From Candidatus Heimdallarchaeum aukensis (GTDB lineage: Archaea; Asgardarchaeota; Heimdallarchaeia; Heimdallarchaeales; Heimdallarchaeaceae): a stretch of 64,000 nt of DNA. How positions within the stretch are numbered: position 1 is the first letter of the stretch; every line of letters starts with the position of its first letter. Shown here in pieces: positions 34,619 to 64,000 of the stretch. Both the position numbers and the translations under genes were made by a program. Under the pieces are notes generated by a model. That model was not told the origin of the DNA. It worked only from the letters and a program-made list of their open reading frames with translations, and searched no databases. The stretch lies in the NCBI GenBank assembly GCA_021513695.1, contig CP084166.1:32001-96000 (forward strand). Reading direction: 5' to 3'.

Positions 34619-34709
34619 TTATCGTATAGTACTCTTTAGAGTTCTGGGATTGGAATTGGGGCTATTATTTCCTGGAGTAAGTAATTGAAAATTGAAAAGA
34701 AGTGTAAAA

Positions 34710-37700
34710 ATGAAAAAAAGTAAAATTAAAGTTATTTCTATTATCGCTATTTTTCTTCTCATCTTGAACGTCTCGACGATATACGTTCAAGGTCAGATGG
34801 TAGGTAATGAAACTAAATTAATGATGACTGGAAATCCTACAGAAGTTTATGAAGATCAGATAGCGATTCTGTATGATCCATTTAATGATATGACAAGAGA
34901 ACTAGCAAATTCGATTTATGAGACTGTTCATATGTTTTATTCTAACGTGAAAATGGTCAAAGTTTTCAATTTAGATTCATTTAACAGAGCTTTTTATGAT
35001 GATGATTGGATTAAAATCTATGTTTTCGACTCTGACTTAAAAGGAATAAAATTTGCTGGTTGGACAATGTCATGGAGAAAACTAACTGGATACTACAATG
35101 TTTTCAAAGATACAAGGCACATTGGAGTTTATGGAAACTCATACAAGATGGGTCCATATCTTAAGACTGAAAACTGTTATATAGAAAATACAGAGATTCT
35201 AGATTATCGTATTGCTTACATTCATGTATTGTGGTCATTATATGATATTTTTACAGAAAAAGAAGATGAAATTCTTCAACAAATAGGAGAAAATTTCAAA
35301 TTAATAGCAATTAAATATTTTGGAGATTCATTTGAAGAAATAATGTCTGCCGAGTTTGATCCACAAGGATTAGGTGTTGTTGACCCAAAAAAGGCAGAAG
35401 AAAGATTACAAGATTCAATGGACCAATATCCAAAGAGATTAAATAAAGTTAATCCATATACGGGTGAGTTAGTTGATCCAACAGCAGAGATTGAAGGATT
35501 TAATCCTGTAATGGATATTAAACCCAAAGCAGCGATAGATGAAGATGACATTGTTTTAGGTGAGTTTCCGTTCTTATCTTCGATTCCTGGAGCTGCAGGT
35601 GACGTTATTAAAATAATTTTAGAGTTTATAGGTGTCGAGATACCAGAAGGTTTATTGACTGTAGGTAAAGAATATGGGGGGCAGATCGTCGCAATAATTA
35701 AAGAGATACCTAAAATTATTGGTTTCTTTAAGGATCCAAGTGCAAGTAGTGCTATTGAACTATTTTTTGATGTAGCAAAAGAAATGTTTCCCAGTATAGA
35801 AGAATATAAGCCCTACTTCGATATAGTAGTGAAAGCCCTATTTTCGATAAAAGATATTGCTTCAGGGGATCTTACTCCTTTAATTGATATATCAATGGAA
35901 CTTCTACGATTTATAATTCCTGATAGTGTAGGAGATTTTGTTGACGATGTTTTTGATGCTTTAAACATATCAAGTGCCCTTTCTGATATTATTAGTGGAG
36001 TTACTAATGTTGGTGATTATCTTAAGAGTTTTCTCAATAGGCAACTAATTACAAATTTAATGAAGAAATTTATTGAACAGACTTTAGATCTAGGGGGAGA
36101 ATCCCAAAAATGGATAGATACCATTTCAGAGATTATTATGATTGCTTATGAAATTGCCAGCACTCGAGATATGGATCACATAATAGCGGATGTCTTTCCA
36201 CGATTAGGAAAATTAGTTTACAAGAACATCTTAGATATGACCTATGATGAAAATGTAGAAAATACCTTCAAAGGAATTGCTGTTGCAATTAAGATGGGTT
36301 TTGGAGCTGCTGGAATCATTGATGTTAATCTTAAGGATTCATTTATGGATTTAATAGGCTTCTTCTTCCCTGACCTCGTTGAGACAGTTAATGATGTTAA
36401 ATTCTTTGTTTCAAGTATTAGGTCTCAAATTGATTCCTTTATGGATCTTGTTAAAGATGTTTCAGAAGGTAAAAATCTAGATGTAAACAACGTTCATGAC
36501 CAAATTATATCTTTAATTACTGAGCTTAGTTCATTATCAGGTCATTCTCTCGATGCAAATAAGATAAATGTACTCTCTCAAGCTGTTTTGATGGCTTTAG
36601 CTCTAATAAATGGTGATTTTGAAGCTTTAAGTGATACTAGCTGCCTAACAAGTCTAGTTGATGGATTTCTAGAACATTTTATTGGACTAGAAGAAGGTCC
36701 TAGAGAAATTGTACAAAAGGCAATAGAAGCTGGAGCAGCTATTTTACCTTTCATTACTGGGAAAAAGAGTTTGAAAAAATATATTATGGGAAGACTTGAA
36801 GATTTTGCTGACAAATTCAAGAATCCTGGAGAAATAATTGAAAAGGTTCTTTATTATTTCCTAAGCAAGTACAACGCAAGTACTCAACTTTACCAACTTA
36901 TTGGAAAAATTGTAGGAATAGTCATTGACATCTTTTCTGGAGGATTTGACTTTTCTGTTCAAAATGTTATTCAGACAATAATCTCAATGGCAGTTGTAGT
37001 TTTGAACATGTTAGATGTCAATATTCCGTTAGAAGCAATGTACAAGAGTTTTCAACTTCTATGGGAAGAGGGGCCAGAATTTTCCAATGTTGTAAAAGTA
37101 GTTCAAGATATTATGGGATTACTTGGAGGAAGCATTGACCCAACAATTAAAACTACTGTAGAAACAGTTCTTACTTTTCTAGGAGGAGCAAAGAATATCT
37201 TCAAAGATGGAATAAAATGGATAATGAACCAACTTGTAGGTTGGGCAGCAGGGCAGATTGCTAATTTATTAAATATGCTTACTGATAAATTAAATGAACT
37301 GTTCCAATCTCTTGGTGATTTGGTAAGTTATGATTCTGAATTCCCAATTGGTTTCGGAAGTTTTACTGCCTTCCAGATGCGAGTATTCTTCTCTTTAAGT
37401 CCTGGATTCGAAATTAACCCTGAACCAATTCAAGAGCTCATTATGAGTATGATTTTTGATGGGTCAAAGGTTTTTGATCTCGATAATATCGGAGAATTGT
37501 TTAAGCTTATCTTAAAATCAATTTCAATTATTCCTATTTTCAAAGCTGGACTTGAAATCAAAGCAGGAACGTCTGGAAAGAACGACTTAATGAAGATGCT
37601 CCTTGATTCTCTTGGTCTGGAACTTTCATTCTCTGGCTCTGCAGGACTAACACTGCAATTAATGAAGATTTCTAATGGTAAAATAAGTACTAGTGATTTC

Positions 37701-40700
37701 TTCAAAGTAATAGAATTCTTCTTTAAATTCCAGATATCAATAGCTAAAACATTCCCATTAGCAGAATTTCTAGGTCCAGGAGGAGCAGTTTTAGCTAAAG
37801 TTGCAGAATTCTTAGGTTTAGGTGGAATTTACCTAAAGATAGAGTTCTTTATAGCAATAGAAATTGTTAAACGATGTGAGACACCTACTCAGAAGGCTGC
37901 AGATATTTTAACAATTGTAATAGGAATAGGTGTTTCTGTAATTATTGATATCGACTTGGTAATTGTTGGAATAAAAATAACTATAGGTTTTGTAGTGACG
38001 CTGACGTTTATCCAGGACTTCTTGGCGGACGCACCGCTGCAAGTGATACTCGAGATAGAGTTCACTGTAGCGGTGAAACTGACGTTCTTGTTCGTCGACT
38101 GGACAGGAACAGCGTCATGGGGTCCAGATCCAATTTATCTGGCAGGAGGACCGGATGATGAAAGCACAAAAGACGAAATGAGCGGCTTGGACGCAGATGG
38201 GGATGGGTTACCTGATTCATATGAGTTAGGAGTTCCAGGAATGAAAGTAGACAGCGATGACAGTGATGGAGACGGTTTATCAGACCAATTCGAAGTGAAA
38301 ACGAGTAAAACAGACCCTATCACTGCAGATTCTGACGATGATGGTCTAGATGATTACATGGAATATGAAGTCTTAAAGACCAATCCTCTACAAGTAGATA
38401 GTGACTATGATGGTTTAACTGACTATGAAGAAGTTGTTATCTATGGAACTGATCCTAATGCACAAGATACAGATGGTGATCAATTAGATGACTATTACGA
38501 AGTAAATACTGCATGGAATATCACTGGAATAACTCCAAGTGTAAGATTTGTTACAATTGGGGGAGTAGAGTATAAAGATCATACTGATCCTCTTAATCCT
38601 GATACTGATGGTGATGGACTTCTAGATGGACAAGAAGGAGAATTTGGGGCTTATTATGGACCAGAATTGTATAACACTTCAGACCCAAGTTGGGATCCCT
38701 ATCCAATATTCTACAATCAAGGATATACTCATCCATTAGATAATGATACCGATGATGATTCTTATAAACAATTAGCAAATGGAACTATAGCTCCAGATCG
38801 TCAGTTCTTAATCTATATGTCTGATAAGGTAGAAATAGATGGACAATGGGTTATTTTCATTGAAGATGATGAATTAATGGGTAGAGTAGTTAGAACTAAC
38901 CCAATTAACCCTGATACTGATGGTGATTCAGCAGTAATGGATAAATCTTGGAGAGGTGATGGGGCTCCTCTTGACTTTTTCCTGAAGTCTGATGGTTACG
39001 AACTCTGGTTAGATCCGCCGACAGACCCGAATGACGCGGATATGGACGATGATGGATTAATTGACGGTTTAGAGGGTTGGGGTAATAAGATCAGTAATCA
39101 TACTGATCCTCGTAATCCTGATACTGATGGTGATGGACTTGGAGACCTGCAAGATATTCTACTCGGTTCGGATCCTTTGAACCCTGATAGTGATATGGAT
39201 GGAATTCTAGATGGTGAGGAGTTCTTCAAGTATGGAACTAACCCCGCTTATGAAGATACAGATCATGATGGGCTTTTGGATGGTGAGGAAGTTTATCTAT
39301 TCCACACAAACCCTCTGGCGGTAGATAGCGATGGAGATGGGATAGATGATGGAATGGAGGTATTAGTTTATGGTTCAGACCCGATGGATGAAGATATGGA
39401 TAACGACGGTCTAACAGACTGGGAAGAGATTTTCTACTACTTTACCAATCCTAGAGATTACGACTCAGATGATGATGGTCTAAGTGATGCTATGGAGGTT
39501 TTAGATGAATATGCTATATACACTGACCCATTGAATTGGGACTCTGATAATGATTCAATCACATATCCTAATGAAAACGGAAATTATACTTTCCCACTTT
39601 CTGATGGAGATGAAGTACTAATTTACGGAACTGACCCATTGACAAGCGATACTGATGGAGATGGATTGCACGATTCGTTTGAACTATATCTTGGTTCAGG
39701 TTTAATTTACAACTTTACTCCTGTACCTTTGGATCCGTTATCTAACGATACTGATGGAGATGGAATATATGATGCAAATGAATACCACATTGCAAATGTC
39801 TCTAACATCATTTATCCTTATGTTAGTTTTATCATCACCCAACCTTACAATACTTCTCCAGTAGATCCAGACTCTGATGATGACGGGATTATCGATGGAG
39901 ACGAAGTCTATGTATATGGAACTATGCCAGATATGAAAGATACAGATGGAGATGGACTAGACGATTGGAGTGAACTTAATATTATGTATACTAACCCTCT
40001 GAGTTCGGATACGGACAATGACTATCTGACAGATTGGGAAGAATGGTATGCGGGTTTTGAACATCCAGGATATCTACTTGATCCTAACGACCCTGATTAT
40101 GATAATGATATGCTGCCAGATGGGCCAGAGTTACTACTTTACGGTTCTAATCCTAATAATGCCTATGAGATTGATCCAAGTTCAGGAAAAGTCGATGGTC
40201 TGTTGATGGATTGGGACCATGATGGTCTAGAAGATGGTTTAGAGTTCTTTGTATACAACACTAGTTATGTAGCAGGAGGAGGAGTCACCCAGCCAGATAG
40301 TGATAGAGATGGTTTGATGGATGGTGCAGAAGTATATGTTCATGGTACAGTCCCCACGAATTGGGATACTGACAATGATACATATAGTGATGGATTAGAA
40401 GTGATGTTAGGACTAGATCCTCTTACATATACAACAGAAGAGGAATTTATAGCAGCTCTATCTGCAAATCAAGATATGCTAGAAGCAGGAGTACTAGTTA
40501 TCTCACCAATAGAAGGTGGAATTTACTCTCCTTCTAACTATACTTTCATCCTCTATAACGTGACAGAACTACTGGGCGTACAATATCAAATGAAGAAGAA
40601 CAAACAAGATTTCGGAGACAACATGAGTATGTACTATGATGATGTTTCAAGGACGTGGATAACTCAAGGAGATTATATTGGACCTGGAGATTATATCGTC

Positions 40701-49113: not shown

Positions 49114-49791
49114 ATGTTGATGGTACCTACTCAGATGAAAAAAATAACCATACTAGGGACAACTGGTAGTGGAAAGACCACCTTTTTAGAAGCTTTATTT
49201 GGTGATTTTGAAAAAAATGATGTTAAAAGAGATTTGAGTAAAGAAAAAAGTTCAAATTGTGATTTTATTCCTTTGAAAAATAATACATTCAAAGAAAGTA
49301 CAACAACAATAAGTTTGAATGTCATTAATTCATTGCTTTATTTGACTACATTTAATCGATTAGGTTTAGAAAAGTTCGAAAATAGAGACAATATTGACTT
49401 TGAAAATGTTGAAGAGATTTATCAAATAGTTTTCAATGATCCTGCAGGACAAGAAAGATTTGATTTCATGCAAGAGATAGCAGTAAGAGGAGCAAACCTA
49501 GTAATTATAATGGCTGATGGCACAAATATCTCGAGTTTAGAAAAAGTAGTTCATTATATTTCGTTGGTAAAAATTGAAGAAAATCTATCTAAAAAGAAAA
49601 TACCGACTATTATTTTCATCAACAAATCTGATTTAAAGGAAAAGGGTGTTTATTTAGGAAAAAATGTAGCTGAGCAGATTATTTATTCAAGCATTCTTGA
49701 TGAGAAATTACTTATTTATGAAACTTCTAACCTTAAGAGAGAAACATATGATGAACCTTTGAGGATTATTTTTAACTATCTTTCATACTAA
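49114..49791 (+). CDS. Ras-superfamily (Rab/Ras-like) small GTPase
   Basis: 225-aa ORF. P-loop GTTGSGKTT. Switch II DPAGQERF (Rab/Ras DTAGQE). NKSD (NKxD). About 70-aa insertion between G1 and G3. Real start may be the internal Met (MKKITILG) at 49135. Confidence 0.75.
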   Translation: MLMVPTQMKKITILGTTGSGKTTFLEALFGDFEKNDVKRDLSKEKSSNCDFIPLKNNTFKESTTTISLNVINSLLYLTTFNRLGLEKFENRDNIDFENVEEIYQIVFNDPAGQERFDFMQEIAVRGANLVIIMADGTNISSLEKVVHYISLVKIEENLSKKKIPTIIFINKSDLKEKGVYLGKNVAEQIIYSSILDEKLLIYETSNLKRETYDEPLRIIFNYLSY

Positions 49792-49843: not shown

Positions 49844-50818
49844 ATGAGCGTAAAAATAACCTCAGAATATATAGAGCTGCTGAATAAAGCAGTTGCAAGA
49901 GAATTACAAGTTTCTGTTCAATATTTTCTACAACACGCTAAAATTGAAAAAATAATGAGAAAAGTTAAAGCTGAAAATATTTTACTTGATTCCACAACTT
50001 ACGACCAGATAGGTCAGATTTTAAAGAAACTAGCAATAGAAGAAATGAAACATGCAGGATCAATCGTTGAGAGAATTTATTATTTGGGAGGCAAGGCAAC
50101 AACTAAAGCTTTTAAACCTAAAATAGGAGAAAATATGCAAGAATTTATGAAATATGGCTTTGAAGCTGAAGAAGAAGCTTTAGAATTATATCGTGAAATA
50201 ATCCGCGAGGCAGGTAAATTAGGAGATTATGATACTAAAGAACTCTTTAGGAAAATCTATAGAGAGGAAGAAGAACATCTTTATACGTTTCAAGAATATT
50301 TAACAATTAATATTAGTGAACCTGGAGAGACAGCACCAAAGTCCGAATGGAGAAAAGTTTTTGACGACGAATACTTTGCTCTATTAAACAAAGCCTTAGC
50401 TTCAGAACTGTCTGCTATTATTCAGTACATAACCCAACATGAAAAAGCGAGTGCAATCAATCTTAGGAAAAAAGAAACGCCTTTAGAAGTAATTACCAAT
50501 ACAAACAAAGCGCAAGTTATTAGTAACATGTTAAAGAAAATCTTTATGCAAGAAATGGAACATTACGAAAAGATTTCTGAAAGAATATACATGTTGGATG
50601 GAGAATGTACATTGGATCCTGATCCTTTGCCAAAAGTTGGTGAGAGCGTAGAAGATTTCTTGAAACTGGGTCATCAAGCTGAAGATGAAGCTATTGTTCT
50701 TTATCGTAAAATCATAGAAGAAGCTACTAAGAAGGGAGATATAACTACTAAGAAGATGTTTGAAGAAATATTGATGGAAGAAGAAGAACATTACTGGATG
50801 TTTGATGACTACTTGTAA
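49844..50818 (+). CDS. Tandem-duplicated ferritin-like (bacterioferritin/rubrerythrin-fold) diiron protein
   Basis: 324-aa ORF with two ~150-aa halves. Each carries ferroxidase-type E...QY/E..H ligand motifs (ELQVSVQYFLQH + EEMKHAGSIVERIYYLGG; ELSAIIQYITQH + QEMEHYEKISERIYMLDG) and the conserved E-x-x-H second pair (EEEHLYTFQEYL; EEEHYWMFDDYL). Confidence 0.7.
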   Translation: MSVKITSEYIELLNKAVARELQVSVQYFLQHAKIEKIMRKVKAENILLDSTTYDQIGQILKKLAIEEMKHAGSIVERIYYLGGKATTKAFKPKIGENMQEFMKYGFEAEEEALELYREIIREAGKLGDYDTKELFRKIYREEEEHLYTFQEYLTINISEPGETAPKSEWRKVFDDEYFALLNKALASELSAIIQYITQHEKASAINLRKKETPLEVITNTNKAQVISNMLKKIFMQEMEHYEKISERIYMLDGECTLDPDPLPKVGESVEDFLKLGHQAEDEAIVLYRKIIEEATKKGDITTKKMFEEILMEEEEHYWMFDDYL

Positions 50819-51254: not shown

Positions 51255-51704
51255 ATGAAATTGAATATTACCCAATTTAAGATTAAATTCAAGGATAAAA
51301 TAGAAATTGAAAATGAAGAGAAATTTGCAGATAATATAATCTATTATTATCCGTTTTTTCAATCTTTAGATAAAAATGAGTTAGAGAAGTCTCTTCAATC
51401 AATAAGAGAAGAAAAAAAAGTCTTGGAGAAAAAATTCAAAAAAATAAAAGAAGAGTTCTCAGATATACTGGGAGAGATAGCAAAAATACGTTTCACAGCT
51501 AATGAATTATATAATCAAAATAGGGTTATAGCTCTGACTACAGGGTTATTAAGACATAAGCTGATAGATTTACATAATAATAATGTTGAACTTCCTTTTG
51601 ATTATGAGGAAACACTTAAGTTTGTAGAACATTTTATTTATAGATATTTAACTAAAAAAGAAGATAAAAGACTTGTTGCCCAGCTACCTTTTAAAGAGAT
51701 TTGA
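51255..51704 (+). CDS. Hypothetical protein
   Basis: 149-aa ORF with no recognisable domain. Upstream of the serine recombinase gene. Confidence 0.4.
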   Translation: MKLNITQFKIKFKDKIEIENEEKFADNIIYYYPFFQSLDKNELEKSLQSIREEKKVLEKKFKKIKEEFSDILGEIAKIRFTANELYNQNRVIALTTGLLRHKLIDLHNNNVELPFDYEETLKFVEHFIYRYLTKKEDKRLVAQLPFKEI

Positions 51705-51783
51705 GAAAATTCACACTTTTTCTATTTGGAATAGTAATACTAAGTTTTATATTAAAAATAGAGAACCTTATTGCAAGGTCAAA

Positions 51784-52506
51784 ATGATTCGTTGTGTTAT
51801 TTATGCTCGTACATCTACAGCTGATCAAACTAGTGGGTTAGAAACACAGATTGAAGATGTAACGGCTAAGATATATCAAGCTGGAGATAGAGCAATAGTA
51901 AGAATAATTAAAGATCAAGATATTGCAGGCGATAGTGACCCTGAATATAGACCCGGATTTAAAGAAATCCTAGAAATGGCAAAGAATAATCAATTTGATG
52001 AGTTATGGTCTCAATCAAGAGACAGATTGTCAAGAGACGTTGATATTTTGGGTTATATTCGCATTCTTCTAAAAAAGAATAATGTTTCTATAGTTTGTTT
52101 AGATGATGAAGAAAACAAGGTTATTTCTAGAGTTAAAGACCTATTTGGTGAAATGGAACTTCAAAAATATAGAGAAAAAAGATACAAAGGAATGATGAGA
52201 AGACTAAAGGAACAAAAAGTAATGTCAAGACCTCCTTTTGGTTATAAAGTGAATGAGGAAGGAAAATTAGTTGTAGATGAGGAAAAAGCAGCAATAATTA
52301 GAAGGCTCTTTTCTGAATTTGACAACCCTTTGGCTTCTTTGAAAAGTTTAAGTTTGAAATATAATTTATCTGTCTCTACACTGCGAAATATTCGTTCAAA
52401 CCCAATTTATCGAACTGGTGAAGTACGTTGGGCAGGAAAAATTGCTTATTATGTTGATCCTATTGTCCCTGAAAATAAAGATCAAAAACTTAAGTTAGAC
52501 GACTAA
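51784..52506 (+). CDS. Serine recombinase (resolvase catalytic domain + partial 'recombinase' domain; truncated large-serine-recombinase-like)
   Basis: ATG 51784 (MIRCVIYARTSTADQ = Y.R.ST..Q catalytic-serine motif). RDRLSRD (SRLSR-like). Downstream recombinase-domain pattern RPPFGYKVNEEGKLVVDEEKAAIIRRLF ... STLRNIRSNPIYRTGEV. The protein ends about 60 aa later, with no zinc-ribbon or coiled-coil region. TATA-like TTTTATATTA about 35 nt upstream. Confidence 0.7.
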   Translation: MIRCVIYARTSTADQTSGLETQIEDVTAKIYQAGDRAIVRIIKDQDIAGDSDPEYRPGFKEILEMAKNNQFDELWSQSRDRLSRDVDILGYIRILLKKNNVSIVCLDDEENKVISRVKDLFGEMELQKYREKRYKGMMRRLKEQKVMSRPPFGYKVNEEGKLVVDEEKAAIIRRLFSEFDNPLASLKSLSLKYNLSVSTLRNIRSNPIYRTGEVRWAGKIAYYVDPIVPENKDQKLKLDD

Positions 52507-54327: not shown

Positions 54328-54480
54328 ATAATAATCAGGTTAAAAGAAACTCAACCCCTTAAATTGAAAATTAAATATAATTACAAATTCCATTTCTTTT
54401 TTTTAAATTTGAAAATCAATATTTAGTTACCGCTTTACTCTTTCAGAAAAAGTAAAAAAGCCCATCGAAATTTGAATTTA

Positions 54481-55401
54481 ATGGTTTCTATAACTTTCAT
54501 ACTTGCAATAATTTTTGGACTGATCTCTTATGCAGCTTATAACTTAGGTTTTGCATTGGAAAAAGAAGTTGTTGATAAAATAGATGAAAAAGATAAGAAA
54601 CCATTTTCAAAATACTTACTGCGTTTATTGAAAGAAAAAAGATGGCTAGCTGGCCTTTTCTTGACTTTCTTAAGTGTTCCATTTTATTATATTGCTTTGA
54701 TTTGGGTTCCTTTAGTAGCTATCTCCCCCTTATCTGGTTTTGGACTGGTTGTGTTAGCTATATATGCTCATGTTAAAGTTAAAGAAAAAATTAGTGTAGT
54801 TGAATTAAGTGCAATAGTTTCTGCTATAATAGGTATAAGCTTATCTTCTATTATTACAAGTAAGTATTCGATTACAATTACCCACGATGAATGGACAAAT
54901 TCTGTAATATCGCTTAAAGGTTTATTTTTAGGAATAAGCGTTTTAATATCTTTTCTGCTTTGCGCTCTTGTTTCGATATTTTCTAAAAAAAATAACTTAA
55001 AATTAATTTCTTTAGCACTGATTTCTGGATTATCTGCTGGAATTCAAGCAATAATTGTTAAAGGCATAGGTTCTTTAATTTATGATTATGGATTGACTAA
55101 TGTTTTTCTGTTATTTGTTTATTTAGCTCTATTAATTATTACTGCAGCTATTTCTACTTTAGTTCTTCAAATAGCTTTTAAATATGGAAAGGTTTCCACT
55201 TCTATGGCAATTTATAATGGACTAGTAACTATTTTACCAATCTGTTTTGCAGGTATTTTGTTAAACGAATGGCGACCAATTCCTTTGCTTTCTAAATTTA
55301 TTCTGGCTATTGCAATTTCTTTGACTGTCTTTGCTATCGTCTTATTAAGTTTAAGCCACTTAAAACACAATAATAGTGAAGAAAAAACCAAAAAAAAATG
55401 A
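54481..55401 (+). CDS. NIPA-like (DUF803) DMT-superfamily membrane protein, putative Mg2+ transporter
   Basis: ATG 54481 (track start TTG 54472). LLKEKRWLAGLF...VPLVAISPLSGFGLVVLAIYAHVKVKEKIS aligns with the NIPA core ([12 protein letters not shown]...[30 protein letters not shown]). Later LVTILPICFAGILLNEWRP matches NIPA ...AILFKEW. 9 TM segments. Confidence 0.55.
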   Translation: MVSITFILAIIFGLISYAAYNLGFALEKEVVDKIDEKDKKPFSKYLLRLLKEKRWLAGLFLTFLSVPFYYIALIWVPLVAISPLSGFGLVVLAIYAHVKVKEKISVVELSAIVSAIIGISLSSIITSKYSITITHDEWTNSVISLKGLFLGISVLISFLLCALVSIFSKKNNLKLISLALISGLSAGIQAIIVKGIGSLIYDYGLTNVFLLFVYLALLIITAAISTLVLQIAFKYGKVSTSMAIYNGLVTILPICFAGILLNEWRPIPLLSKFILAIAISLTVFAIVLLSLSHLKHNNSEEKTKKK

Positions 55402-55417
55402 TTGAATTAAAAAAGAA

Positions 55418-56776
55418 CTAGTCATCTTCTTTTTTTAGCAATCTTAATGTTTTTTTCTCTACCTCTTCTAGCACTTTTTCAATAATAATGGAATCAAAGT
55501 CATAATTCTTAATGACTATTTTTCCATTAACAATTACGTTTTTTATTTCTGAACCATTCATTGAATAAGCAAAATGACTCAATAATGAATCAGAAGAGAT
55601 AGCAGGAGTTAAATGTGGTTTTTTAAGATCAATTGTAACAATATCTGCGAGTGAATCTTGTTCTAAACTTCCTATACCCTTCCATCTTAAAGCTTTTGCT
55701 CCTCCAATCGTAGCTAACCAAAATGTATCCTTTGCTTTTATTACTTCTGGGTCAGAAAGTAATCCCTTATAAAATAAAGCTAAATACCTTACAGTATCAA
55801 AAATATTTAATGTATTGTTACTTGCTGGTCCATCAGTCCCTAATCCCAAATTTTCTATTTTTCTTATCATCTTATCCAATGGAGGCATATGATTTCCAAG
55901 TTTTGAGTTAGATAAAGGATTTACAATAACTCTAACTTTGTTTTTTCGAAGTTTAACGATATCTTCTCTTGAAACATGAATACAGTGGGCAGTTAACAGG
56001 TATTCATGTAATAATCCTATTTTTTCCATTAATTCTACTGAAGAATTGACATCAGGAAAATCTTCATTTTTATTGAGGTTAAACTTTTTAGCTTGAGTTA
56101 ATTCATCTTCTGGTTCTGCTAAATGGGTATGGATGAGTAATTTGTCTACATCTTCGCATTCTTGATTTCTGTTTAGTATATATTCATTTGCTTCAACAAA
56201 GTCAGAAATTGTTACTGTATAAGGAGAATGCAAAGATAAAGCAGCTCGGACTCTTCCTTTCTCTGAATTATGAAGTTTAGTTGCAAGAGAAAGAGAATTT
56301 TTCAGATTATTCATCCCAGAAATAACAGGAGGACCAACCATTCCTCTTATTAGAGTATCTTTAATTGCCTTTGCTTCTTCTTCAGGATACCAATACATTG
56401 AATTGATTGTAGTTACTCCAGCAAGTAAAGATTCTATAGCTCCTAATTTGGCACCATAATAAACATCTTCTGCTGTCAATTTTCTTTCCATTGGCCAAAT
56501 ATGATCTTGAAGCCAGATATTAAGAGGTAAGTCATCAGCTATTCCTCTAAACAAAGTCATTGCCAAATGGGTATGGCCATTAATTAACCCAGGGATAAGT
56601 AATTGATTTTCATCTCCTACTTTGTCATGTCCTACAACATCTTTTTTGACTTCAGAATATTTTCCTATATTTACAATCCTTTCTTGTTCAACCACTATTC
56701 CAGGATCTTCAATAAAATGGAGTTTTAAATCTGAAGAAAAGTAGAGAGCATATTTTCCTCTTATTACTAGTTCCAT
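55418..56776 (-). CDS. Amidohydrolase-superfamily deaminase (MtaD/5'-deoxyadenosine-S-adenosylhomocysteine deaminase-like)
   Basis: 452-aa ORF. Metal-binding LIPGLINGHTHLAMTLFRG (HxH). IHTHLAE. GLGTDGPASNNTLNIFD (His/Asp ligands). Overall MtaD/TRZ-ATZ-family length. Confidence 0.7.
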   Translation of the reverse strand: MELVIRGKYALYFSSDLKLHFIEDPGIVVEQERIVNIGKYSEVKKDVVGHDKVGDENQLLIPGLINGHTHLAMTLFRGIADDLPLNIWLQDHIWPMERKLTAEDVYYGAKLGAIESLLAGVTTINSMYWYPEEEAKAIKDTLIRGMVGPPVISGMNNLKNSLSLATKLHNSEKGRVRAALSLHSPYTVTISDFVEANEYILNRNQECEDVDKLLIHTHLAEPEDELTQAKKFNLNKNEDFPDVNSSVELMEKIGLLHEYLLTAHCIHVSREDIVKLRKNKVRVIVNPLSNSKLGNHMPPLDKMIRKIENLGLGTDGPASNNTLNIFDTVRYLALFYKGLLSDPEVIKAKDTFWLATIGGAKALRWKGIGSLEQDSLADIVTIDLKKPHLTPAISSDSLLSHFAYSMNGSEIKNVIVNGKIVIKNYDFDSIIIEKVLEEVEKKTLRLLKKEDD

Positions 56777-56912
56777 AAATTCTATTTATTCTACTTTTTT
56801 CAAAAATTTTTGGGTAAAAAATATTTAAGTTGTATAACATTCGGTTGCCTTTGAACAAATAATTAAATATGTTTTAACTATAATACTATATAGAAATTTC
56901 AGAGATGATTTT

Positions 56913-58769
56913 ATGAATAAAATAAATATTATATTAACCTATTTAGTGGTTTCTAGTTTTCTTATCCTCTCTGGATCTGTTTATGCTGCCGATGTTTCTG
57001 GTTCAACAATTGAAGCTTCACCTTCTGATATTTATGAGTATCAGATAACTAGTATTACTGTTACTTCAAAGAATGGAGTAGGTACTGCACTTGGAGGAGT
57101 AACTGTAAATATCTCTGCTCAAGAAGGTTCCTTTGTTGAAAATGAGATGAAGTACATAATCTTAACTACAAATGACAATGGTATTGCTTCCGCTGATTGG
57201 AAAGCTCCTGAAGCTAAGAGTGCAGTAGAAGCTAAAGAAGTTACAATAACTGCTGTATTCACTTCTGGTAGTGATACAGCTACAAAAGAATTAAATGTAA
57301 CTGTTCATCCTCTTTCTTTTGATACAAGTACTATAACTATAAGCCCAGATCCAGTTTACGAGACACAGAATTCAACTATTGAGATAACTGCAAAAGGTAC
57401 ATACGGAACCATTGCAGAAGCAAATGTTCATCTAACTTGTGACGATGGAGTGTTTCCAGATTCTGATACTTTCGAGATAGATGTCCAAACAGATTCAGAT
57501 GGAAAAGTTCAAGTTATCTGGAATGCTGATTTAACTACATTAGTTTCTGAACTAAACTATGTTAACTTTACTGCTACAGTAACTTATAGCGGTTCTACAG
57601 CCACTAAAGACTTGACTGGAACTATTTATGTTAATGAACTAGATTTGAGTAGTTCAACAATGGTTGCGTCAAGTACGGATGTAGGAGGAGGGACACATGT
57701 TTCTATTGTTGTTACTGCAGAGGGAGCTTTAGGAGTGATTTCTAACGCAAGAGTAGAGTTAGACGCTCTTGATGGTAAATTCTCCAATAACGAACAAGAT
57801 ATTACAGGATATACTAACTCTTCAGGAATGTATGAGACAGAATGGATAGCTCCTGATGTTTCAAATGCTATTGACATTATAATCTCAGGAACAGTTTCTG
57901 TTGATAACACTCTCGCAACTAAGGATCTAGATGATATAACAATTACTGTTAATCCTATAGTTCACAACTTCACAATAAGTTTAGATGCAAATGCTACAGA
58001 AATAACAGCTGGAGAACCTGTAGAATTAACTGTAACTTTGACTAATGAATTAGGTTATACTGTAGAAGATGCAGAGATTACTTTCAATGCTATGGAAGGA
58101 GAATTTGTAGGTTTTGATGCTCTAACTGCTAAGATTAACAGTTCATCTGAAGGAATTGCTTCTGTAGTATGGAATACAACTGATTTATCTCCACCAATAC
58201 CTAATGGACAGGATTATCCTATAACTATTAATATAGTTAAAGAATTCTATAATTCTGAAGAAGATTCAATAGATATACATGTTAATCCTATTATCCTTAA
58301 ACTAAGCTCTAGCACTACTCCAGATAAGACAACTATAACTCAAGGAGAAAATGTTACATTTACTGTTTTTGTTAGTGCTGGAGAACAAGGAGTAGAAGGA
58401 GCAACTGTAACTATAACCGCTCTAGCAGGTACTTTTGCCAGCAGTGGGAATCAAATTACTTCACTAGAAACAAATTCCACTGGATATGTTACTTTTGTAT
58501 GGATAACAGAAGATATGACAGTAACAACTGCAAAGAACTATACATTTACTATCGATGCAGCCCTTCCAGGATATGATTCATCAGAACAAGAAACAGTTAC
58601 TATATTAGTTAATCCAGTTGATACAGGAGGAGCAGAACCTACACAAACTACTACTCCTACAGGAGGATTGTCTACAATGACTAAACTAGGTATCCTTCTT
58701 GGAGCACTTGGAGGAGTGGTTCTATTAGGAGGTTTAGGTTACTTCTTAATTAGTAGACGAGGTATATAA
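56913..58769 (+). CDS. Secreted surface protein with about 5-6 tandem Ig-like (Big/invasin-like) domains, T/P-rich stalk and C-terminal TM anchor
   Basis: 618-aa ORF. Signal peptide INIILTYLVVSSFLILSGSVYAADVSG. Repeated ~100-aa beta-sandwich modules (TKDLTGTIYVN..., TKDLDDITITVNP..., SIDIHVNPI...). C-terminus PTQTTTPTGGLSTMTKLGILLGALGGVVLLGGLGYFLISRRGI. Stop is 1 nt before the next gene. Confidence 0.8.
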   Translation: MNKINIILTYLVVSSFLILSGSVYAADVSGSTIEASPSDIYEYQITSITVTSKNGVGTALGGVTVNISAQEGSFVENEMKYIILTTNDNGIASADWKAPEAKSAVEAKEVTITAVFTSGSDTATKELNVTVHPLSFDTSTITISPDPVYETQNSTIEITAKGTYGTIAEANVHLTCDDGVFPDSDTFEIDVQTDSDGKVQVIWNADLTTLVSELNYVNFTATVTYSGSTATKDLTGTIYVNELDLSSSTMVASSTDVGGGTHVSIVVTAEGALGVISNARVELDALDGKFSNNEQDITGYTNSSGMYETEWIAPDVSNAIDIIISGTVSVDNTLATKDLDDITITVNPIVHNFTISLDANATEITAGEPVELTVTLTNELGYTVEDAEITFNAMEGEFVGFDALTAKINSSSEGIASVVWNTTDLSPPIPNGQDYPITINIVKEFYNSEEDSIDIHVNPIILKLSSSTTPDKTTITQGENVTFTVFVSAGEQGVEGATVTITALAGTFASSGNQITSLETNSTGYVTFVWITEDMTVTTAKNYTFTIDAALPGYDSSEQETVTILVNPVDTGGAEPTQTTTPTGGLSTMTKLGILLGALGGVVLLGGLGYFLISRRGI

Positions 58770-58770
58770 T

Positions 58771-61494
58771 ATGTTTAGGAAGAAGAGAGGAGTTTCTCCT
58801 GTAATTGCAGTTGTTCTGATACTTGGTCTTACCTTAGCTGCAACTGCAATTGTTTTTCTAGTTGTACTTCCAATGGTAAATCAAAGAAATGCTCCTGAGT
58901 TATACATTGATGAGACTTCAGCACCTTTGTTTATGGATTACGATAATGATGGAAAATGTGACTATATAACTGTCCAAGTTGGAAATATCGGTGGGAGTGC
59001 GTTTAATGTTACTAATATAACGATCGTAGCTTCCAAAGATAGTTCGTCCAACTTCTACACTTGGGAGTTAATGGATAATGTAAATGGGACAATAGGTGTA
59101 AATGATCGTGTTCTATTAAAGATGAGGGCTGCTGTAGATGATACTGATGAAATAGATGATGGTTCAAGTCTAATTTTAACACTAATAAATGACCAATATA
59201 TTGTAGGTCTAGAACTTGGGACAATTACTGTTGAACAAGGAGAACCACTATCTATTGAATTTACTGATTCTTCAGGAGATCCTGTTGTTGGTTCTAATAT
59301 TTATTTCTACTATTCCACAGGAGAATTTGCTTACACAGGGGAACCAACATCTGTTAGTGGTGTTTCAAACACTTATCTATTTCCAGGGACTTACTATGCA
59401 AAAGCTCAATCTGGAATGCAATTCTACACCACAGATGTTTTTATTCATCCAGGAACACCCCAATTACATTTAGAGATGTCTGGAGGAACTTTAACTGTTA
59501 AAGTTAAATCAGGTACAACACCTTTAAGTGGTGTAAGAACTTATTTGTATGATACCTATAGCCATTATTTGAATAAATACTCTGATACTAATGTTGATGG
59601 ACTAGCTACTTATTCTCTTGATGATGGAGTGTATAAGATCAGAGCAGATGTTTCTGGAATAGTCTATTATTCAGAAAATATAAACTTCCCAAATACAACT
59701 TATATAGAAATTGACACAGGAGGAGGTACTGTTTATGCTCACGTAATTGATGGAGGAAATAATCCAATAGTCAACACTCGTGTCTATCTTTTCACCTCAA
59801 GTGGAAGCTACACTGGTAAATACGGTAACACCAATGCTACAGGGTATGCTGAATTTGCTGCAGTTTCAGGAGGAACTAATTATAAGTTTAGAGTAGATTA
59901 CTTGGCTTATAGAATCTGGAGTCAAACCTTTGGAGCTTCAGATGGGGCAGTTATTGATGTTAATGTAGGAGGAGGAACAATATATGTCAATGTAACTGAT
60001 GGTGACGGCAATCCAATAAAGAACACTCGTACATATCTCTTTACTTCAAGCGGAAGTTATACTGGTAAATACTCGAATACAAATACAAGTGGAATAGCCA
60101 CTTACAGCTCTATAGCTGCTGGAGATTACAAGATTAGAATTGACTATCTTGCTCAAAGATTCTGGAGCCCAGTTTTCACTGCTTCAAATGGATTAATAGT
60201 TAATGCATCTATAGGAGGAGGAACACTTTATGGAAATATTACTGTGGCTGGAAATGCTTTAGTTAACACTCGTGTTTATCTTTTCACTTCAAGTGGAAGT
60301 TATACCGGTAAATATGGAAATACAAATGCTTCTGGAATAGTAACATTTGTTGGAATAGGCACTTCTAACTATAAGTTAAGGGTAGATTACCAAGCAGATC
60401 GTCATTGGTCAGATGTTTTCTATTTCAATGAAACAATGGTTTATCACTTTGAACTAGGTGGAGGAACAGTTTATGCCAATGTCACTGCTGGAGGGGTACC
60501 AGTTGTCAATACTAGAGTCTATGTATTCACTGATAGCGGAAGTTATACAGGAACTTATGCAAACACTAATGCTTCAGGAATAGCAACATTCAACACATTA
60601 AGCAGTGGAGACTACAAATTCAGAGTTGACTACCTCGCAAAAAGATTCTGGAGTGATGTATTCACTGCCAGTGATGGTTTAGTTGTAGATGTTGATTTAG
60701 GTGGAGGAACAATATATGTCCATTTGACTAATACCTATGGTGTAGATATTGCTAATGTACGTCTCTATCTCTTCACTTCAAGTGGAAGCTACACAGGTAA
60801 GTATACAAACACAAATGCTACGGGTTGGGGAGTTTTTGCAGGAATAGGAGAATCAGACTATAAAGTACGTGCAGACTATCTAGCAAAAAGATACTGGTCA
60901 AACGTATTTACTGCAACCGACGGATTAAATGTAGATTTCAATATAGGTGGAGGAATAGTTTGGTTACATGTGTTTGACGGAAGTGGGACAAATATAAGCG
61001 GACCAAGAGCTTATCTCTTTACTGAGAGCGGAAGTTATACTGGAATCTACAGAAACCTGGATGCTAATGGATATCTGAACTTTACTGGAATAGGTGATGG
61101 TAACTTCAAATGGAGAGTCGACTATCTTGCAAAAAGATTCTGGTCTGATGTTTTCTCTGCGACAAACGGTACAACTTTAGAATTCAACATCGGTGGAGGA
61201 ACAATATACGTTCATCTAACAGTTAATGGTGCTGATGTTAATAACGGAAGAATATACTTGTTTACAGATACTGGTAGTTATACTGGAAAATATGCAAATA
61301 CAAACTCTACAGGTTGGGCAGTGTTCTATGGAATTGGAGCAGGAGATTATAAGTTGAGATATGATTATGATGGAACACGTTATTGGAAGAATTTCTCCGC
61401 AGATGCAGATTTACAGGTAGGGTTTGCTATTGTAACCACAATGACCCTTTCTGTATTAACAGTTCAACCTTCTAAGTCAAAAGAAAATTATTAA
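58771..61494 (+). CDS. Large (907 aa) protein with archaeal class III (type IV pilin-like) signal peptide and 8 tandem ~83-aa beta-sandwich (carboxypeptidase-regulatory-domain-like) repeats
   Basis: N-terminus MFRKKRGVSPVIAVVLILGLTLAATAIVFLVVLPMV matches the archaeal pilin/class III signal pattern ([KR]-G-[VA]-S-P-V-I-A + hydrophobic). Eight repeats such as GGGTIYVNVTDGDGNPIKNTRTYLFTSSGSYTGKYSNTNTSGIATYSSIAAGDYKIRIDYLAQRFWSPVFTASNGLIVNASI. Confidence 0.85.
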   Translation: MFRKKRGVSPVIAVVLILGLTLAATAIVFLVVLPMVNQRNAPELYIDETSAPLFMDYDNDGKCDYITVQVGNIGGSAFNVTNITIVASKDSSSNFYTWELMDNVNGTIGVNDRVLLKMRAAVDDTDEIDDGSSLILTLINDQYIVGLELGTITVEQGEPLSIEFTDSSGDPVVGSNIYFYYSTGEFAYTGEPTSVSGVSNTYLFPGTYYAKAQSGMQFYTTDVFIHPGTPQLHLEMSGGTLTVKVKSGTTPLSGVRTYLYDTYSHYLNKYSDTNVDGLATYSLDDGVYKIRADVSGIVYYSENINFPNTTYIEIDTGGGTVYAHVIDGGNNPIVNTRVYLFTSSGSYTGKYGNTNATGYAEFAAVSGGTNYKFRVDYLAYRIWSQTFGASDGAVIDVNVGGGTIYVNVTDGDGNPIKNTRTYLFTSSGSYTGKYSNTNTSGIATYSSIAAGDYKIRIDYLAQRFWSPVFTASNGLIVNASIGGGTLYGNITVAGNALVNTRVYLFTSSGSYTGKYGNTNASGIVTFVGIGTSNYKLRVDYQADRHWSDVFYFNETMVYHFELGGGTVYANVTAGGVPVVNTRVYVFTDSGSYTGTYANTNASGIATFNTLSSGDYKFRVDYLAKRFWSDVFTASDGLVVDVDLGGGTIYVHLTNTYGVDIANVRLYLFTSSGSYTGKYTNTNATGWGVFAGIGESDYKVRADYLAKRYWSNVFTATDGLNVDFNIGGGIVWLHVFDGSGTNISGPRAYLFTESGSYTGIYRNLDANGYLNFTGIGDGNFKWRVDYLAKRFWSDVFSATNGTTLEFNIGGGTIYVHLTVNGADVNNGRIYLFTDTGSYTGKYANTNSTGWAVFYGIGAGDYKLRYDYDGTRYWKNFSADADLQVGFAIVTTMTLSVLTVQPSKSKENY
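59482..61440 (+). repeat. Eight near-tandem coding repeats, unit 243-249 nt, encoding the ~83-aa modules of the pilin-signal protein
   Basis: Recurrent unit starts (ggaggagga/ggtggagga...ac..t.tatg..) at 59482, 59719, 59968, 60214, 60457, 60700, 60946 and 61192. Spacings are 237/249/246/243/243/246/246 nt. Confidence 0.85.
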
Positions 61495-61496
61495 TT

Positions 61497-61530
61497 ATCT
61501 CTTTCTTTTTTCTTTTTTCCTTTTGCAATT
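61497..61530 (+). terminator. T-rich terminator-like tract after the pilin-signal repeat-protein gene
   Basis: ttatctctttcttttttcttttttccttttgc after stop 61494. Confidence 0.35.
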
Positions 61531-61570
61531 CTATTTATAAGAAATTGTTTGTTATAAATTCTCTTAAAAA

Positions 61571-62638
61571 TTAATTTTTGTTTTTGATTTCGTTTACTCT
61601 TCTATAGGGGTAAATAGGTATTTCTTCTAAACAGTTAGGACATTTTAAATCTACTGTCATATTGGTATAAGTTACTGACATTAGATCTCTCTTTACTAAA
61701 AGTTCAGAGCAAATAGGACAAAAAGTATTCTGTAGAGGATGACCAGGAACATTTCCGAGATAAACATACTTCAATCCTTCATTTTTTGCAATAGAATGAA
61801 CTTTTTGAAGAGTATCTATTGGAGTTGCAGGTATTTCAAACAAATAATGTGGAAAATATCTAATAAAATGAACTGGTGTATAAATTGAAAGATTTTGTTT
61901 TATTTTTTCTACAAATTCTATAATTTGTTCTTCTTCATCGTTAAATTCTGGAATAACTAGATATACAATCTCTATATGGACGCCAGATTGATAGGCTGAT
62001 TTAACATTTTTCCAGATTTTTTCAAATTTAACATCAAGATTATGTTCTATTTTTTCACTAATTCCCTTAAAAGAGACCGTCATTCCGTTCATTCCAGCAT
62101 CTATGAGTAAATCTAAAGCATAAGGTGACATATATCCATTTGTCACATAGTGTTTGTAATAGGTAGGATCAATATTCTTGAAAACATCAACAGTATATTC
62201 TAATGAGAGCGTAGGCTCATTGAAAGAAAAAGAAATTCCTTGAATACTAGGGTTTGTTCTAATAGTTTCAATGACTCTCTCAATAGAAAGAAGACTAGAA
62301 TTAAGAAAATCTTGCGGAGGAGGACGTTTTGAAATTTCAAAATTCTGGCAAAATTCACAAGGAAAATTACATCCCCAAGAACCAAGAGTAAGAGCTGTGG
62401 ACGTTGGATAGTAATGATAAGCAGGTTTTTTTTCTATTGGATTTAAGTTATAGCTTGAAATATCTGAATATTCAATACTATATAGCTTTCCTTCATAATT
62501 TGCTCTTACCTTGCAGTAACCTAGTTCTCCTTTTTCTATAATGCAAAATCTGTTACAAGTTAGACACTGTACTTTAGAATCATCGAGTTTTTTGTATAAG
62601 TAAGCTTCTTTAATTCTTGGGTCAGTCATAGAGTTCAT
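61571..62638 (-). CDS. Radical SAM enzyme, AmmeMemoRadiSam-system type (pyruvate-formate-lyase-activase-like)
   Basis: 355-aa ORF. N-terminal Cys cluster CLTCNRFCIIEKGELGYC. Canonical Cx3Cx2C in GSWGCNFPCEFCQNFEIS. Overall TIGR04337-like layout. Confidence 0.7.
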   Translation of the reverse strand: MNSMTDPRIKEAYLYKKLDDSKVQCLTCNRFCIIEKGELGYCKVRANYEGKLYSIEYSDISSYNLNPIEKKPAYHYYPTSTALTLGSWGCNFPCEFCQNFEISKRPPPQDFLNSSLLSIERVIETIRTNPSIQGISFSFNEPTLSLEYTVDVFKNIDPTYYKHYVTNGYMSPYALDLLIDAGMNGMTVSFKGISEKIEHNLDVKFEKIWKNVKSAYQSGVHIEIVYLVIPEFNDEEEQIIEFVEKIKQNLSIYTPVHFIRYFPHYLFEIPATPIDTLQKVHSIAKNEGLKYVYLGNVPGHPLQNTFCPICSELLVKRDLMSVTYTNMTVDLKCPNCLEEIPIYPYRRVNEIKNKN

Positions 62639-62786
62639 TCAAATAAACAGTAAAGAAAAATGATATTTAAATCAATTGTTCAACTTTGTTTTCTAAAAAA
62701 TCCATTAACTTTTTCTTTATAGAAAGAAGTAAAAACAGCAAGCTCTATTCTGAGTAACAAAAGAAAAAAAGTGTTAATTAGTAAGA

Positions 62787-63404
62787 TTATCTGGCTTTTC
62801 TAATCATTCCCCATACTTGAACATTTGAATTAGGAATCTTTTCAGAAATAGCAACCTCGAAACCAAAATGCTCGTAGAGTGAAATGTTTTCCTCGTTTTC
62901 TGTTTCTAAATAACAAATCTCCTTTTGGGAATCAAAGAAATCTAATGCAGGTCTTAGCAACTTTGAAGCGAATCCTTTGTTCTGGTGCGGAGGATCTACA
63001 GCAATTGAATTTAAATACCAGTGTGGACTATCTATTGCTCTTTCATGTATTTCATCAATAAACTTTTGCATTTTCATTGGTTTTCTCCAATTCATAATAA
63101 AAGGGATGATATATCCTTTACTCTTTAATAAAGCCAAAATGTTGTCTTTCTCTTTTTTTGGAGGAGTTAGAACCATTAAACCTTCAATTTTTTTGGATGT
63201 AGCCACAATATAACCATAATTCATCGCGTAATTTAAGCTGACGTAAAACATGTAGTACATTTTTTTTCTTTTTTTAATGTTAGGAAATAGGTACTTAAAT
63301 AAAGGATCTTCAAAAAAAGCCCTTGTTAGAACGGTACAAGCTTTTTTAATATCTTTTTTTTTGACCGTGTATAGAGAGTCAAAAAATAATGAATTATTTT
63401 TCAT
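62787..63404 (-). CDS. GNAT-family N-acetyltransferase
   Basis: 205-aa ORF with acetyl-CoA motif A-like IAVDPPHQNKGFASKLLRPAL and C-terminal YEHFGFEV. Confidence 0.65.
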   Translation of the reverse strand: MKNNSLFFDSLYTVKKKDIKKACTVLTRAFFEDPLFKYLFPNIKKRKKMYYMFYVSLNYAMNYGYIVATSKKIEGLMVLTPPKKEKDNILALLKSKGYIIPFIMNWRKPMKMQKFIDEIHERAIDSPHWYLNSIAVDPPHQNKGFASKLLRPALDFFDSQKEICYLETENEENISLYEHFGFEVAISEKIPNSNVQVWGMIRKAR

Positions 63405-63488
63405 TAATTTAATTTCTCTTCTTAAAATAATAAACTGTTCCTTGAAATGAAATTATTTAAATCAAAAATAAAAAAAAGAAAAGTGTTA

Positions 63489-64000
63489 TTAGTTCAGATA
63501 GAAGTAAGCACCTGTGTTTCCGTCAAATTGTTGGGGTGTGTCTCCACCGCTGTAAGGATAAGCGTTGAGGGCATAGTTGAATATTGTTTCTAATGCTGTA
63601 GAAGAAGATCCTCCGTAGTAGTTAATCCAGGAGTATTCCAAGAAGTAATATGTCCATGCTCCATTTTGATGTGTAGAATCATCATATCCATAACCGTTTT
63701 CTGTACAAGTTGTTGTTAAGTAAACGTTGCTTTTATTGGGCATGTTCATTAAGTTATCTCCAAAACCGCCACTGAAACAATGATCCAAGAAAACGAATAT
63801 TTTCTCAGCTACTGCATCATCTAGTATTACAGCTAGTTCGGTATCATAAAGGCTACCATCTTCTCCGTTTTCTCCAGAGTTGCAGTCCCACATGCATAAG
63901 TAAGAGCTTCCAGAACCATCTCCAGAACCATGTCCTGAGCTTATGTAAGCAATAACATCATCTGCATCAGCGGTGCCAACTAGCCAGTTTAGAGCTTGTT
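63489..64000 (-). CDS. Clan CD (caspase/gingipain-like) cysteine peptidase domain protein, 5' end beyond window (partial)
   Basis: The minus-strand frame stays open to the window edge (...VGTADADDVIAYISSGHGSGDGSGSSYLCMWDCNSGE...). His-Gly dyad context (ISSGHGS) and catalytic Cys context (VFLDHCFSGGF) match the caspase-like fold order His...Cys. Confidence 0.55.
   Translation of the reverse strand, partial: QALNWLVGTADADDVIAYISSGHGSGDGSGSSYLCMWDCNSGENGEDGSLYDTELAVILDDAVAEKIFVFLDHCFSGGFGDNLMNMPNKSNVYLTTTCTENGYGYDDSTHQNGAWTYYFLEYSWINYYGGSSSTALETIFNYALNAYPYSGGDTPQQFDGNTGAYFYLN

Follow-up and report, generated by a model that had tools for sequence, protein, structure and literature searches.

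When a protein-coding gene repeats itself with a regular period, is it a locus whose length changes by recombination, or simply a gene for a protein built from many similar domains? This question is raised by a gene in a 64,000-nucleotide stretch of DNA (here called the window; 31.6% G+C), which covers positions 32,001 to 96,000 of contig CP084166.1 of Candidatus Heimdallarchaeum aukensis. A preliminary description of the window had interpreted eight near-tandem units inside this gene as a substrate for recombinational expansion and contraction, by comparison with bacterial adhesins. Over its 907 codons, the encoded protein is identical to GenBank UJG40929.1, annotated as "type IV pilin" of Candidatus Heimdallarchaeum aukensis. 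The window therefore comes from an Asgard archaeon and not from a bacterium, so the adhesin comparison drew on the wrong domain of life.

58771-61494, + strand: pilin-like gene, 907 amino acids (aa) plus stop; Pfam matches to Pilin_N, CarboxypepD_reg and Big_1, all above their cutoffs

We found that this is an ordinary multidomain gene, and we reject copy-number-variable repeat locus as a label for it. Its units are probably ancient in-frame duplications, and the array they form a stable structural feature rather than a currently active copy-number switch. Its product is likely a "modular pilin", in which an archaeal type IV pilin module is followed by nine transthyretin-like beta-sandwich domains.

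The unit starts given earlier (59482, 59719, 59968, 60214, 60457, 60700, 60946, and 61192) are all correct and fall in frame 0 of 58771-61494. Unit lengths are, in order, 237, 249, 246, 243, 243, 246, 246, and 249 nucleotides (nt), all multiples of three, and each of the eight units opens with the peptide GG(G)T. All eight are thus present, but a ninth, degenerate unit at 59239-59478 had been overlooked; it shares 15-23% amino-acid identity with the other units and has a 6-bit match to a hidden Markov model (HMM) of the unit. This brings the number of units in the protein to nine. The first of the units noted before, at 59482, is itself divergent. The nine units are numbered below from 0, with confidence in the structure models given as the predicted local distance difference test (pLDDT) where it is cited.

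59239-59478, + strand: unit 0, degenerate beta-sandwich, aa 157-236; weak HMM match of 6 bits, AlphaFold2 strands at 160-235, same position in all orthologs
59482-59718, + strand: unit 1, divergent, 237 nt; HMM 32 bits, 27-38% amino-acid identity to the core units
59719-59967, + strand: unit 2, core type, 249 nt; HMM 126 bits, best CarboxypepD_reg stretch at aa 321-398
59968-60213, + strand: unit 3, core type, 246 nt; HMM 136 bits, best Big_1 and Ig_DR_A0283-like stretches at aa 400-457
60214-60456, + strand: unit 4, core type, 243 nt; HMM 126 bits
60457-60699, + strand: unit 5, core type, 243 nt; chosen for the single-unit structure model
60700-60945, + strand: unit 6, core type, 246 nt; HMM 135 bits
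60946-61191, + strand: unit 7, core type, 246 nt; HMM 130 bits, same-position unit absent from the ortholog P0014
61192-61440, + strand: unit 8, last unit, the domain proper ending at aa 887 (nt 61431); HMM 118 bits, highest ratio of nonsynonymous to synonymous divergence (dN/dS) of any unit, 0.21

The periodicity is recovered by several measures. A repeat search returned families of six or seven copies spaced 243-249 nt apart, and the DNA self-match of 59719-61440 peaks at lags of 243 and 246 nt (41.5%) and at their multiples, rising to 44% at lag 735, over a background of 26.7 +/- 2.6% (z = 5.7-6.6). For each of seven units, the unit HMM gives a score of 118-136 bits, and across the 64-kb window it has no match outside the units of the gene. 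Rfam and tRNA scans of the window gave no match; therefore, no RNA element or CRISPR-like feature lies behind the periodicity. On these points we agree with the preliminary description, which had read the repeats as coding, not CRISPR, and as lying in what appears to be a surface-protein gene.

How similar the units are at the DNA level is another matter. The seven core units, U2-U8 (59719-61440), were compared by codon-aware alignment and share 51-66% of their DNA positions (mean, 59%) and 42-67% of their residues (mean, 54%). Third codon positions are 43% identical, compared with 33% expected from composition, and synonymous divergence (dS) between units is 1.4-1.7 or saturated. No two units have an exact run in common longer than 18 nt, and Tandem Repeats Finder reported no array in 55000-64000 because the units are too divergent. 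The "long nucleotide-identical stretches" that had been ascribed to the array are not borne out by these values: the 36-mer quoted as recurring has no exact occurrence, and its only near matches are two sites that differ from it at 2 and 3 positions.

Mapping unit number across relatives, by comparison between species and between members of sequence clusters, we found that it is largely conserved in Heimdallarchaeaceae. Orthologs from Heimdallarchaeaceae (58-93% identity) are 907-923 aa long and have nine units in 13 of 14 cases, and nine units are also found in most of a farther Heimdallarchaeota clade at 37-39% identity. Moreover, the best match of each window unit is the unit of the same ordinal position in orthologs down to about 58% identity, with a clear margin over the second-best match; the sole exception among nine-unit orthologs is the last unit in the comparison with P0012, the most distant of them. 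Since the units pair by position across orthologs, the array is by this alignment evidence older than the family, with no apparent homogenisation or reshuffling since. From a metagenome scan came a single further close relative among the archaea, the full-length L046 at 58% identity; the other matches were bacterial, at about 30% identity.

The closest comparison is with Candidatus Heimdallarchaeum endolithica, whose ortholog is likewise 907 codons long and in which the pilin-like gene and its adjoining partner gene, described below, align with those of the window over 4582 nt at 87% identity without an indel. Whole-gene dN/dS for this species pair is 0.08, ranging from 0.01 to 0.21 by unit, and every unit is under purifying selection. 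The H. endolithica genome is a de novo Nanopore/Canu assembly (PMC8813620), and its protein is unchanged in two independent short-read Logan assemblies. Because these assemblies agree, the collapse of the array in short-read data, against which the preliminary description had warned, is no concern here.

Within three 90%-identity clusters, full-length members differ by at most 7 residues in length. The short members inspected (P0062, P0064, P0067, and P0069) are cut at one end, owing to a contig end, an internal start call, or apparent adapter read-through; the last is what we take the VSYTHL tail of P0064 to be, since it looks like Nextera adapter sequence. Two further entries in the cluster of the window protein, P0065 and P0063, are pieces of one interrupted gene on a 7483-bp Joint Genome Institute metagenome contig. 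The break falls between units 1 and 2, where an out-of-frame gap about 47 codons long separates the pieces. Its length does not correspond to a whole number of repeat periods, and it represents a pseudogene variant or else a mistake in assembly.

Thus, of the traits that define copy-number-variable repeat genes, in-frame units are present in this gene, and high DNA identity between units and differing unit number in close relatives are absent. Low unit identity combined with an invariant copy number is the outcome that the preliminary description had itself named as fatal to its proposal, and it is the outcome given by the available data.

What does the array build? The regions that flank it in the protein are as follows.

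58771-58791, + strand: charged leader MFRKKRG, a predicted class III (prepilin-type) signal peptide; Pilin_N 37.3 bits (cutoff, 25.2) and TIGR02537 21.4 bits (cutoff, 20)
58792-58899, + strand: hydrophobic N-terminal pilin helix (VSPVIAVVLILGLTLAATAIVFLVV...); AlphaFold2 helix at residues 10-40
58900-59238, + strand: beta-sandwich head of the pilin module, aa 44-156; Pilin_N match at aa 6-90, AlphaFold2 strands at 44-151 with pLDDT of 83-92
61441-61491, + strand: short C-terminal tail, predicted to be disordered (pLDDT below 50 for residues 891-907) and variable among orthologs

The class III signal peptide motif at 58771 is the sole one in the window, and cleavage is predicted between G7 and V8 (MFRKKRG/VSPVIAVVLILGLTLAATAIVFLVV). 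In an alignment of 21 orthologs, S9, P10, V11, and A13 just past this site are invariant, as are D56, Y57, D58, D60, G61, and D64 of the head domain, which holds an invariant DYDxDG motif. With both profile scores over their cutoffs, the helix, and the invariant S9, P10, V11, and A13, the protein belongs to the archaeal type IV pilin-like proteins (PF07790/TIGR02537).

Over the repeats, Pfam reports CarboxypepD_reg (PF13620), which matches in three stretches and scores 56.8 bits (cutoff, 32.3), and Big_1, which scores 54.6 bits (cutoff, 34.9). Since Big_1 also passes, sequence alone is ambiguous between two immunoglobulin-like (Ig-like) families. A structure model of unit 5 alone, based on 35 aligned units (pLDDT, 96.8), is a seven-stranded sandwich, as in the prealbumin-like fold, and a full-length AlphaFold2 model based on 21 orthologs (mean pLDDT, 87) has the helix at 10-40, the head at 44-151, and nine further beta-sandwiches. 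According to these models, each unit is one transthyretin-like (CarboxypepD_reg/CnaB-type) domain of about 81 residues, two of the nine being degenerate and seven well conserved. Residues G2, G3, R20, Y22, Y30, G32, G41, R56, D58, Y59, S66, and F69 of the repeat are invariant or nearly so. None of the conserved residues is a lysine; hence, the isopeptide Lys of CnaB is absent, and a CnaB isopeptide domain was rejected as an assignment.

Structural and sequence searches add little to this picture. Foldseek with the full-length model against the PDB returned generic Ig-like arrays (titin/MyBP-C, TIE, alpha-2-macroglobulin, and contactins) at TM-scores of about 0.1, a model-based result that is uninformative beyond "array of beta-sandwiches", and a sequence search of the PDB with the unit profile gave nothing significant (best E = 0.17). 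The protein has 19 N-X-S/T sequons compared with 11.9 +/- 3.1 in shuffled sequences, a mild enrichment that is consistent with an extracellular location.

The pilin-like gene is accompanied by a second gene, which ends immediately upstream, and by a candidate terminator.

56913-58769, + strand: partner gene, 618 aa; Sec-type signal peptide, about five Ig-like modules, Thr/Pro-rich linker, and C-terminal transmembrane anchor ending in RRGI
61500-61525, + strand: T-rich tract just past the stop codon of the pilin-like gene, read directly from the sequence

The partner modules, of about 105 aa, were counted by eye from recurring V(N/H)P boundaries, and the protein has a weak match to MG4, under the Pfam cutoff. 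The pilin-like gene starts one nucleotide past the partner stop codon (TAA-T-ATG). In every Heimdallarchaeaceae locus examined, a partner at 39-88% identity adjoins the pilin-like gene, even where the flanking genes differ. In one case it lies downstream, the arrangement that a partner-type gene has at the locus of the relative P0016 (contig L005). In a more distant locus, the partner (about 31% identity) is divergently oriented. Oligo-T tracts serve as archaeal terminators, which is the candidate role of 61500-61525.

Taken together, these features likely describe an extended surface stalk or adhesin, as judged from the sequence. In the mechanism that we propose, the protein would be inserted Sec-independently and then cut between G7 and V8 by prepilin peptidase, after which the N-terminal helix would retain it, either in the membrane or as part of a type IV filament. 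In a filament it would most plausibly be a low-abundance (minor) or tip subunit because of its bulk, as has been proposed for bacterial modular pilins (PMC8179133). The ten beta-sandwich domains would extend outward to form a glycosylated stalk with a length of some tens of nanometres. The stalk would have a role in attachment or in the architecture of the cell envelope, in which the partner protein would probably share. Within the reading of the array as stable, we lean slightly, by a rough estimate, toward a filament subunit over a membrane-anchored coat component.

Several observations weigh against this combined interpretation of a stable array on a filament-borne or anchored pilin. Among the nonoverlapping open reading frames of at least 100 aa in the window, there is no type IV pilus ATPase (T2SSE), platform protein (T2SSF), or prepilin peptidase, and gene context therefore lends no support to incorporation into a filament. 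The pilin-like protein contains no ligand-binding domain that could be recognised. As for the array, P0014 lacks exactly one unit, that of the eighth position, with a junction that cannot be placed since the flanking segments are equally similar; P0031 has eight units, one fewer than its nine-unit relatives; and P0016 (L005:656-3739, assembly GCA_964534625.1) has ten. Given these shifts in copy number, the array is not absolutely immutable.

The alternative that survives best concerns display rather than the array. Here the N-terminal helix, cleaved or uncleaved, would anchor the protein outside any filament, and with the C-terminally anchored partner it would form a two-component coat, which may be pictured by analogy as an S-layer-like (surface-layer-like) canopy or fibril layer, comparable to SlaA/SlaB or to the Sulfolobus bindosome, with its sugar-binding proteins that carry class III signal peptides. 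The gene pairing that is kept while flanking genes differ argues for such a coat, as does the lack of pilus assembly genes in the window, and nine bulky domains would be hard to pack as a major pilin. Moreover, Sulfolobus has surface proteins that carry class III signal peptides without belonging to a pilus (PMC3047682). However, pilus genes could sit elsewhere in the 3.08-Mb genome, and there is no sign of lattice-forming contacts or of interaction between the pilin-like and partner proteins. We regard the coat as a possible but rather doubtful alternative.

The second alternative is the one originally proposed, that the units are recombination-prone DNA repeats and that unequal crossover or slippage resizes the array within populations, altering the length of the surface protein. 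The head-to-tail arrangement of units whose lengths are multiples of three would permit this, and such events are seen in relatives: one unit is missing from P0014 and P0031, and the eight core units of P0016 reach 94% DNA identity and have a 195-nt exact run in common, which points to a recently expanded or homogenised array. Unit loss and recent expansion are, however, confined to these other lineages. For the array in the window, the DNA identity of 51-66% and the positional orthology of nine units across species at 58-93% identity argue against resizing, as do the absence of an indel relative to H. endolithica and the finding that none of the examined cluster members differ in length by the size of a unit. 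In bacteria, homologous recombination is usually efficient only with about 20-30 nt of identity, and the longest exact run here falls below that requirement, a bacterial figure that may not be the Asgard archaeal one. Thus, the idea is right for the wider family, since P0014 and P0031 are one unit short and P0016 was recently homogenised, but wrong for this gene, for which we consider ongoing copy-number change very unlikely.

We give almost no credence to an assembly artefact in which short reads collapsed or mis-joined the array and the true unit number differs, since, although H. aukensis was assembled from Illumina reads with SPAdes and Nanopore scaffolding (PMC8813620) and the metagenome contig of P0065 and P0063 in the same 90% cluster has its out-of-frame gap, the units are too divergent to confuse an assembler, the Nanopore-assembled sister genome is collinear without an indel, and several independent assemblies agree on length.

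One segment of the locus probably has a different history from the rest. In a 9.6-kb syntenic block that is 89% identical to H. endolithica, a tract of 337 nt (58652-58988, + strand) has a single mismatch, at 58764, which divides it into identical runs of 112 and 224 nt. The tract covers the C-terminal anchor of the partner and continues across the junction into the pilin-like gene, taking in its first 218 nt, with the signal peptide and helix. Consistent with this, dS between the two species is 0 over codons 1-43 of the pilin-like gene, compared with 0.54 gene-wide. A third species has many synonymous changes within the same tract. Deep constraint at the nucleotide level was considered and rejected on account of these changes, which make inter-species recombination the likeliest cause; the tract is probably the result of recent recombination between two sympatric species.

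A broader proposal can be made, which we consider unlikely: the products of the gene pair may make up the main two-component coat or fibril system on the surface of Heimdallarchaeaceae, an Asgard lineage placed close to eukaryotes, and mediate cell-cell or cell-mineral contact. If true, the coat would serve the contact needed by these syntrophic, rock-attached organisms, and the 337-nt tract would mark a recent exchange of anchoring segments between sympatric species.

Several other features of the window and of the wider family were noted. Collinearity with H. endolithica starts only at 54432; upstream of the locus lies a serine-recombinase (Resolvase) gene (51673-52506, + strand), and a farther Heimdallarchaeaceae contig, L006, has the same resolvase-containing arrangement as the window. 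Four further very large surface proteins are predicted, at 259-3147 (+), 3498-6614 (-), 34692-40913 (+), and 40913-48922 (+), of 962, 1038, 2073, and 2669 aa, the last two reading frames overlapping by one base; the four carry right-handed beta-helix/NosD, bacterial TSP3 calcium-binding, and FG-GAP repeats. The window also encodes two eukaryote-like small GTPases, which are typical of Asgard genomes: a 329-aa Arf-family protein at 13262-14251 (-) and a 225-aa Ras/Roc-like protein at 49114-49791 (+). A 324-aa protein with two ferritin-like domains (49844-50818, + strand) probably belongs to the double-ferritin-fold class of a 2026 bioRxiv preprint, the abstract of which mentions Ca. H. endolithica. 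Beyond the Archaea, bacterial contigs (L012-L029 and L032-L045, from Desulfobacterales and others, many with YD/RHS repeats) encode the same repeat array, matching approximately residues 140-900 at 29-35% identity. This nearly equals the 37-39% of the distant Heimdallarchaeota clade, and it is conceivable that the array moved between domains of life.

These results amount mainly to a correction. A periodic coding repeat does not by itself make a hypervariable locus; the proper test is DNA identity between units together with copy number across relatives, and this gene fails on both counts. For an archaeal cell-surface protein, nothing here is unexpected, and the pilin module, the CarboxypepD_reg/CnaB-like stalk, and the "type IV pilin" annotation of the protein are already known. 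Little has been published on Asgard archaeal surface proteins, and our literature searches on Asgard archaea found no paper specific to this family; in the literature searched, the nine-domain family and its conserved partner in Heimdallarchaeaceae are undescribed. Cryo-electron tomography or proteomics could reasonably be directed at this conserved two-gene module, which consists of a modular pilin-like stalk and an anchored Ig-like protein.

Among known systems, the protein can be compared with the archaeal type IV pilin-like proteins (PF07790 Pilin_N/DUF1628; TIGR02537), with which it has in common the leader KRG/VSPVIA (the slash marking the predicted cleavage site), the hydrophobic helix, and a head of beta-sandwich fold. 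It is much longer than archaeal pilins, which typically have about 130-200 aa, and carries about 750 additional residues. With Pilin_N at aa 6-90 followed by nine CarboxypepD_reg-like domains, it also has the architecture by which modular type IV pilins are defined, namely a pilin module that precedes domains with no specific link to the biology of type IV pili (PMC8179133). The survey from which this concept is taken (Raynaud et al. 2021, PMC8179133) covers bacterial IPR012902 pilins, such as PilB of Streptococcus sanguinis, and the most repeat-rich proteins that it records include one of 860 aa with 12 repeats. The protein described here differs from these bacterial modular pilins in its archaeal Pilin_N (PF07790) module, its nine transthyretin-like domains, and its lack of a recognisable binding module.

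Other surface proteins allow further comparisons. Unlike the CnaB-type domains of Gram-positive pilins and MSCRAMM B-repeats (BcpA, SpaA, and SdrD), the units have no conserved Lys, and the protein has no LPXTG/sortase anchoring; the resemblance to the Sulfolobus S-layer stalk protein SlaB is confined to a single fold and does not extend to an established relationship in sequence. Finally, the streptococcal alpha C/Rib and staphylococcal Sdr/Bap-type repeats are nearly identical in DNA and vary in number between strains. The pilin-like gene shares with them in-frame, head-to-tail units of one domain each, but its units are 59% identical and their number is fixed at nine, and it is the relative P0016 that does resemble this class.

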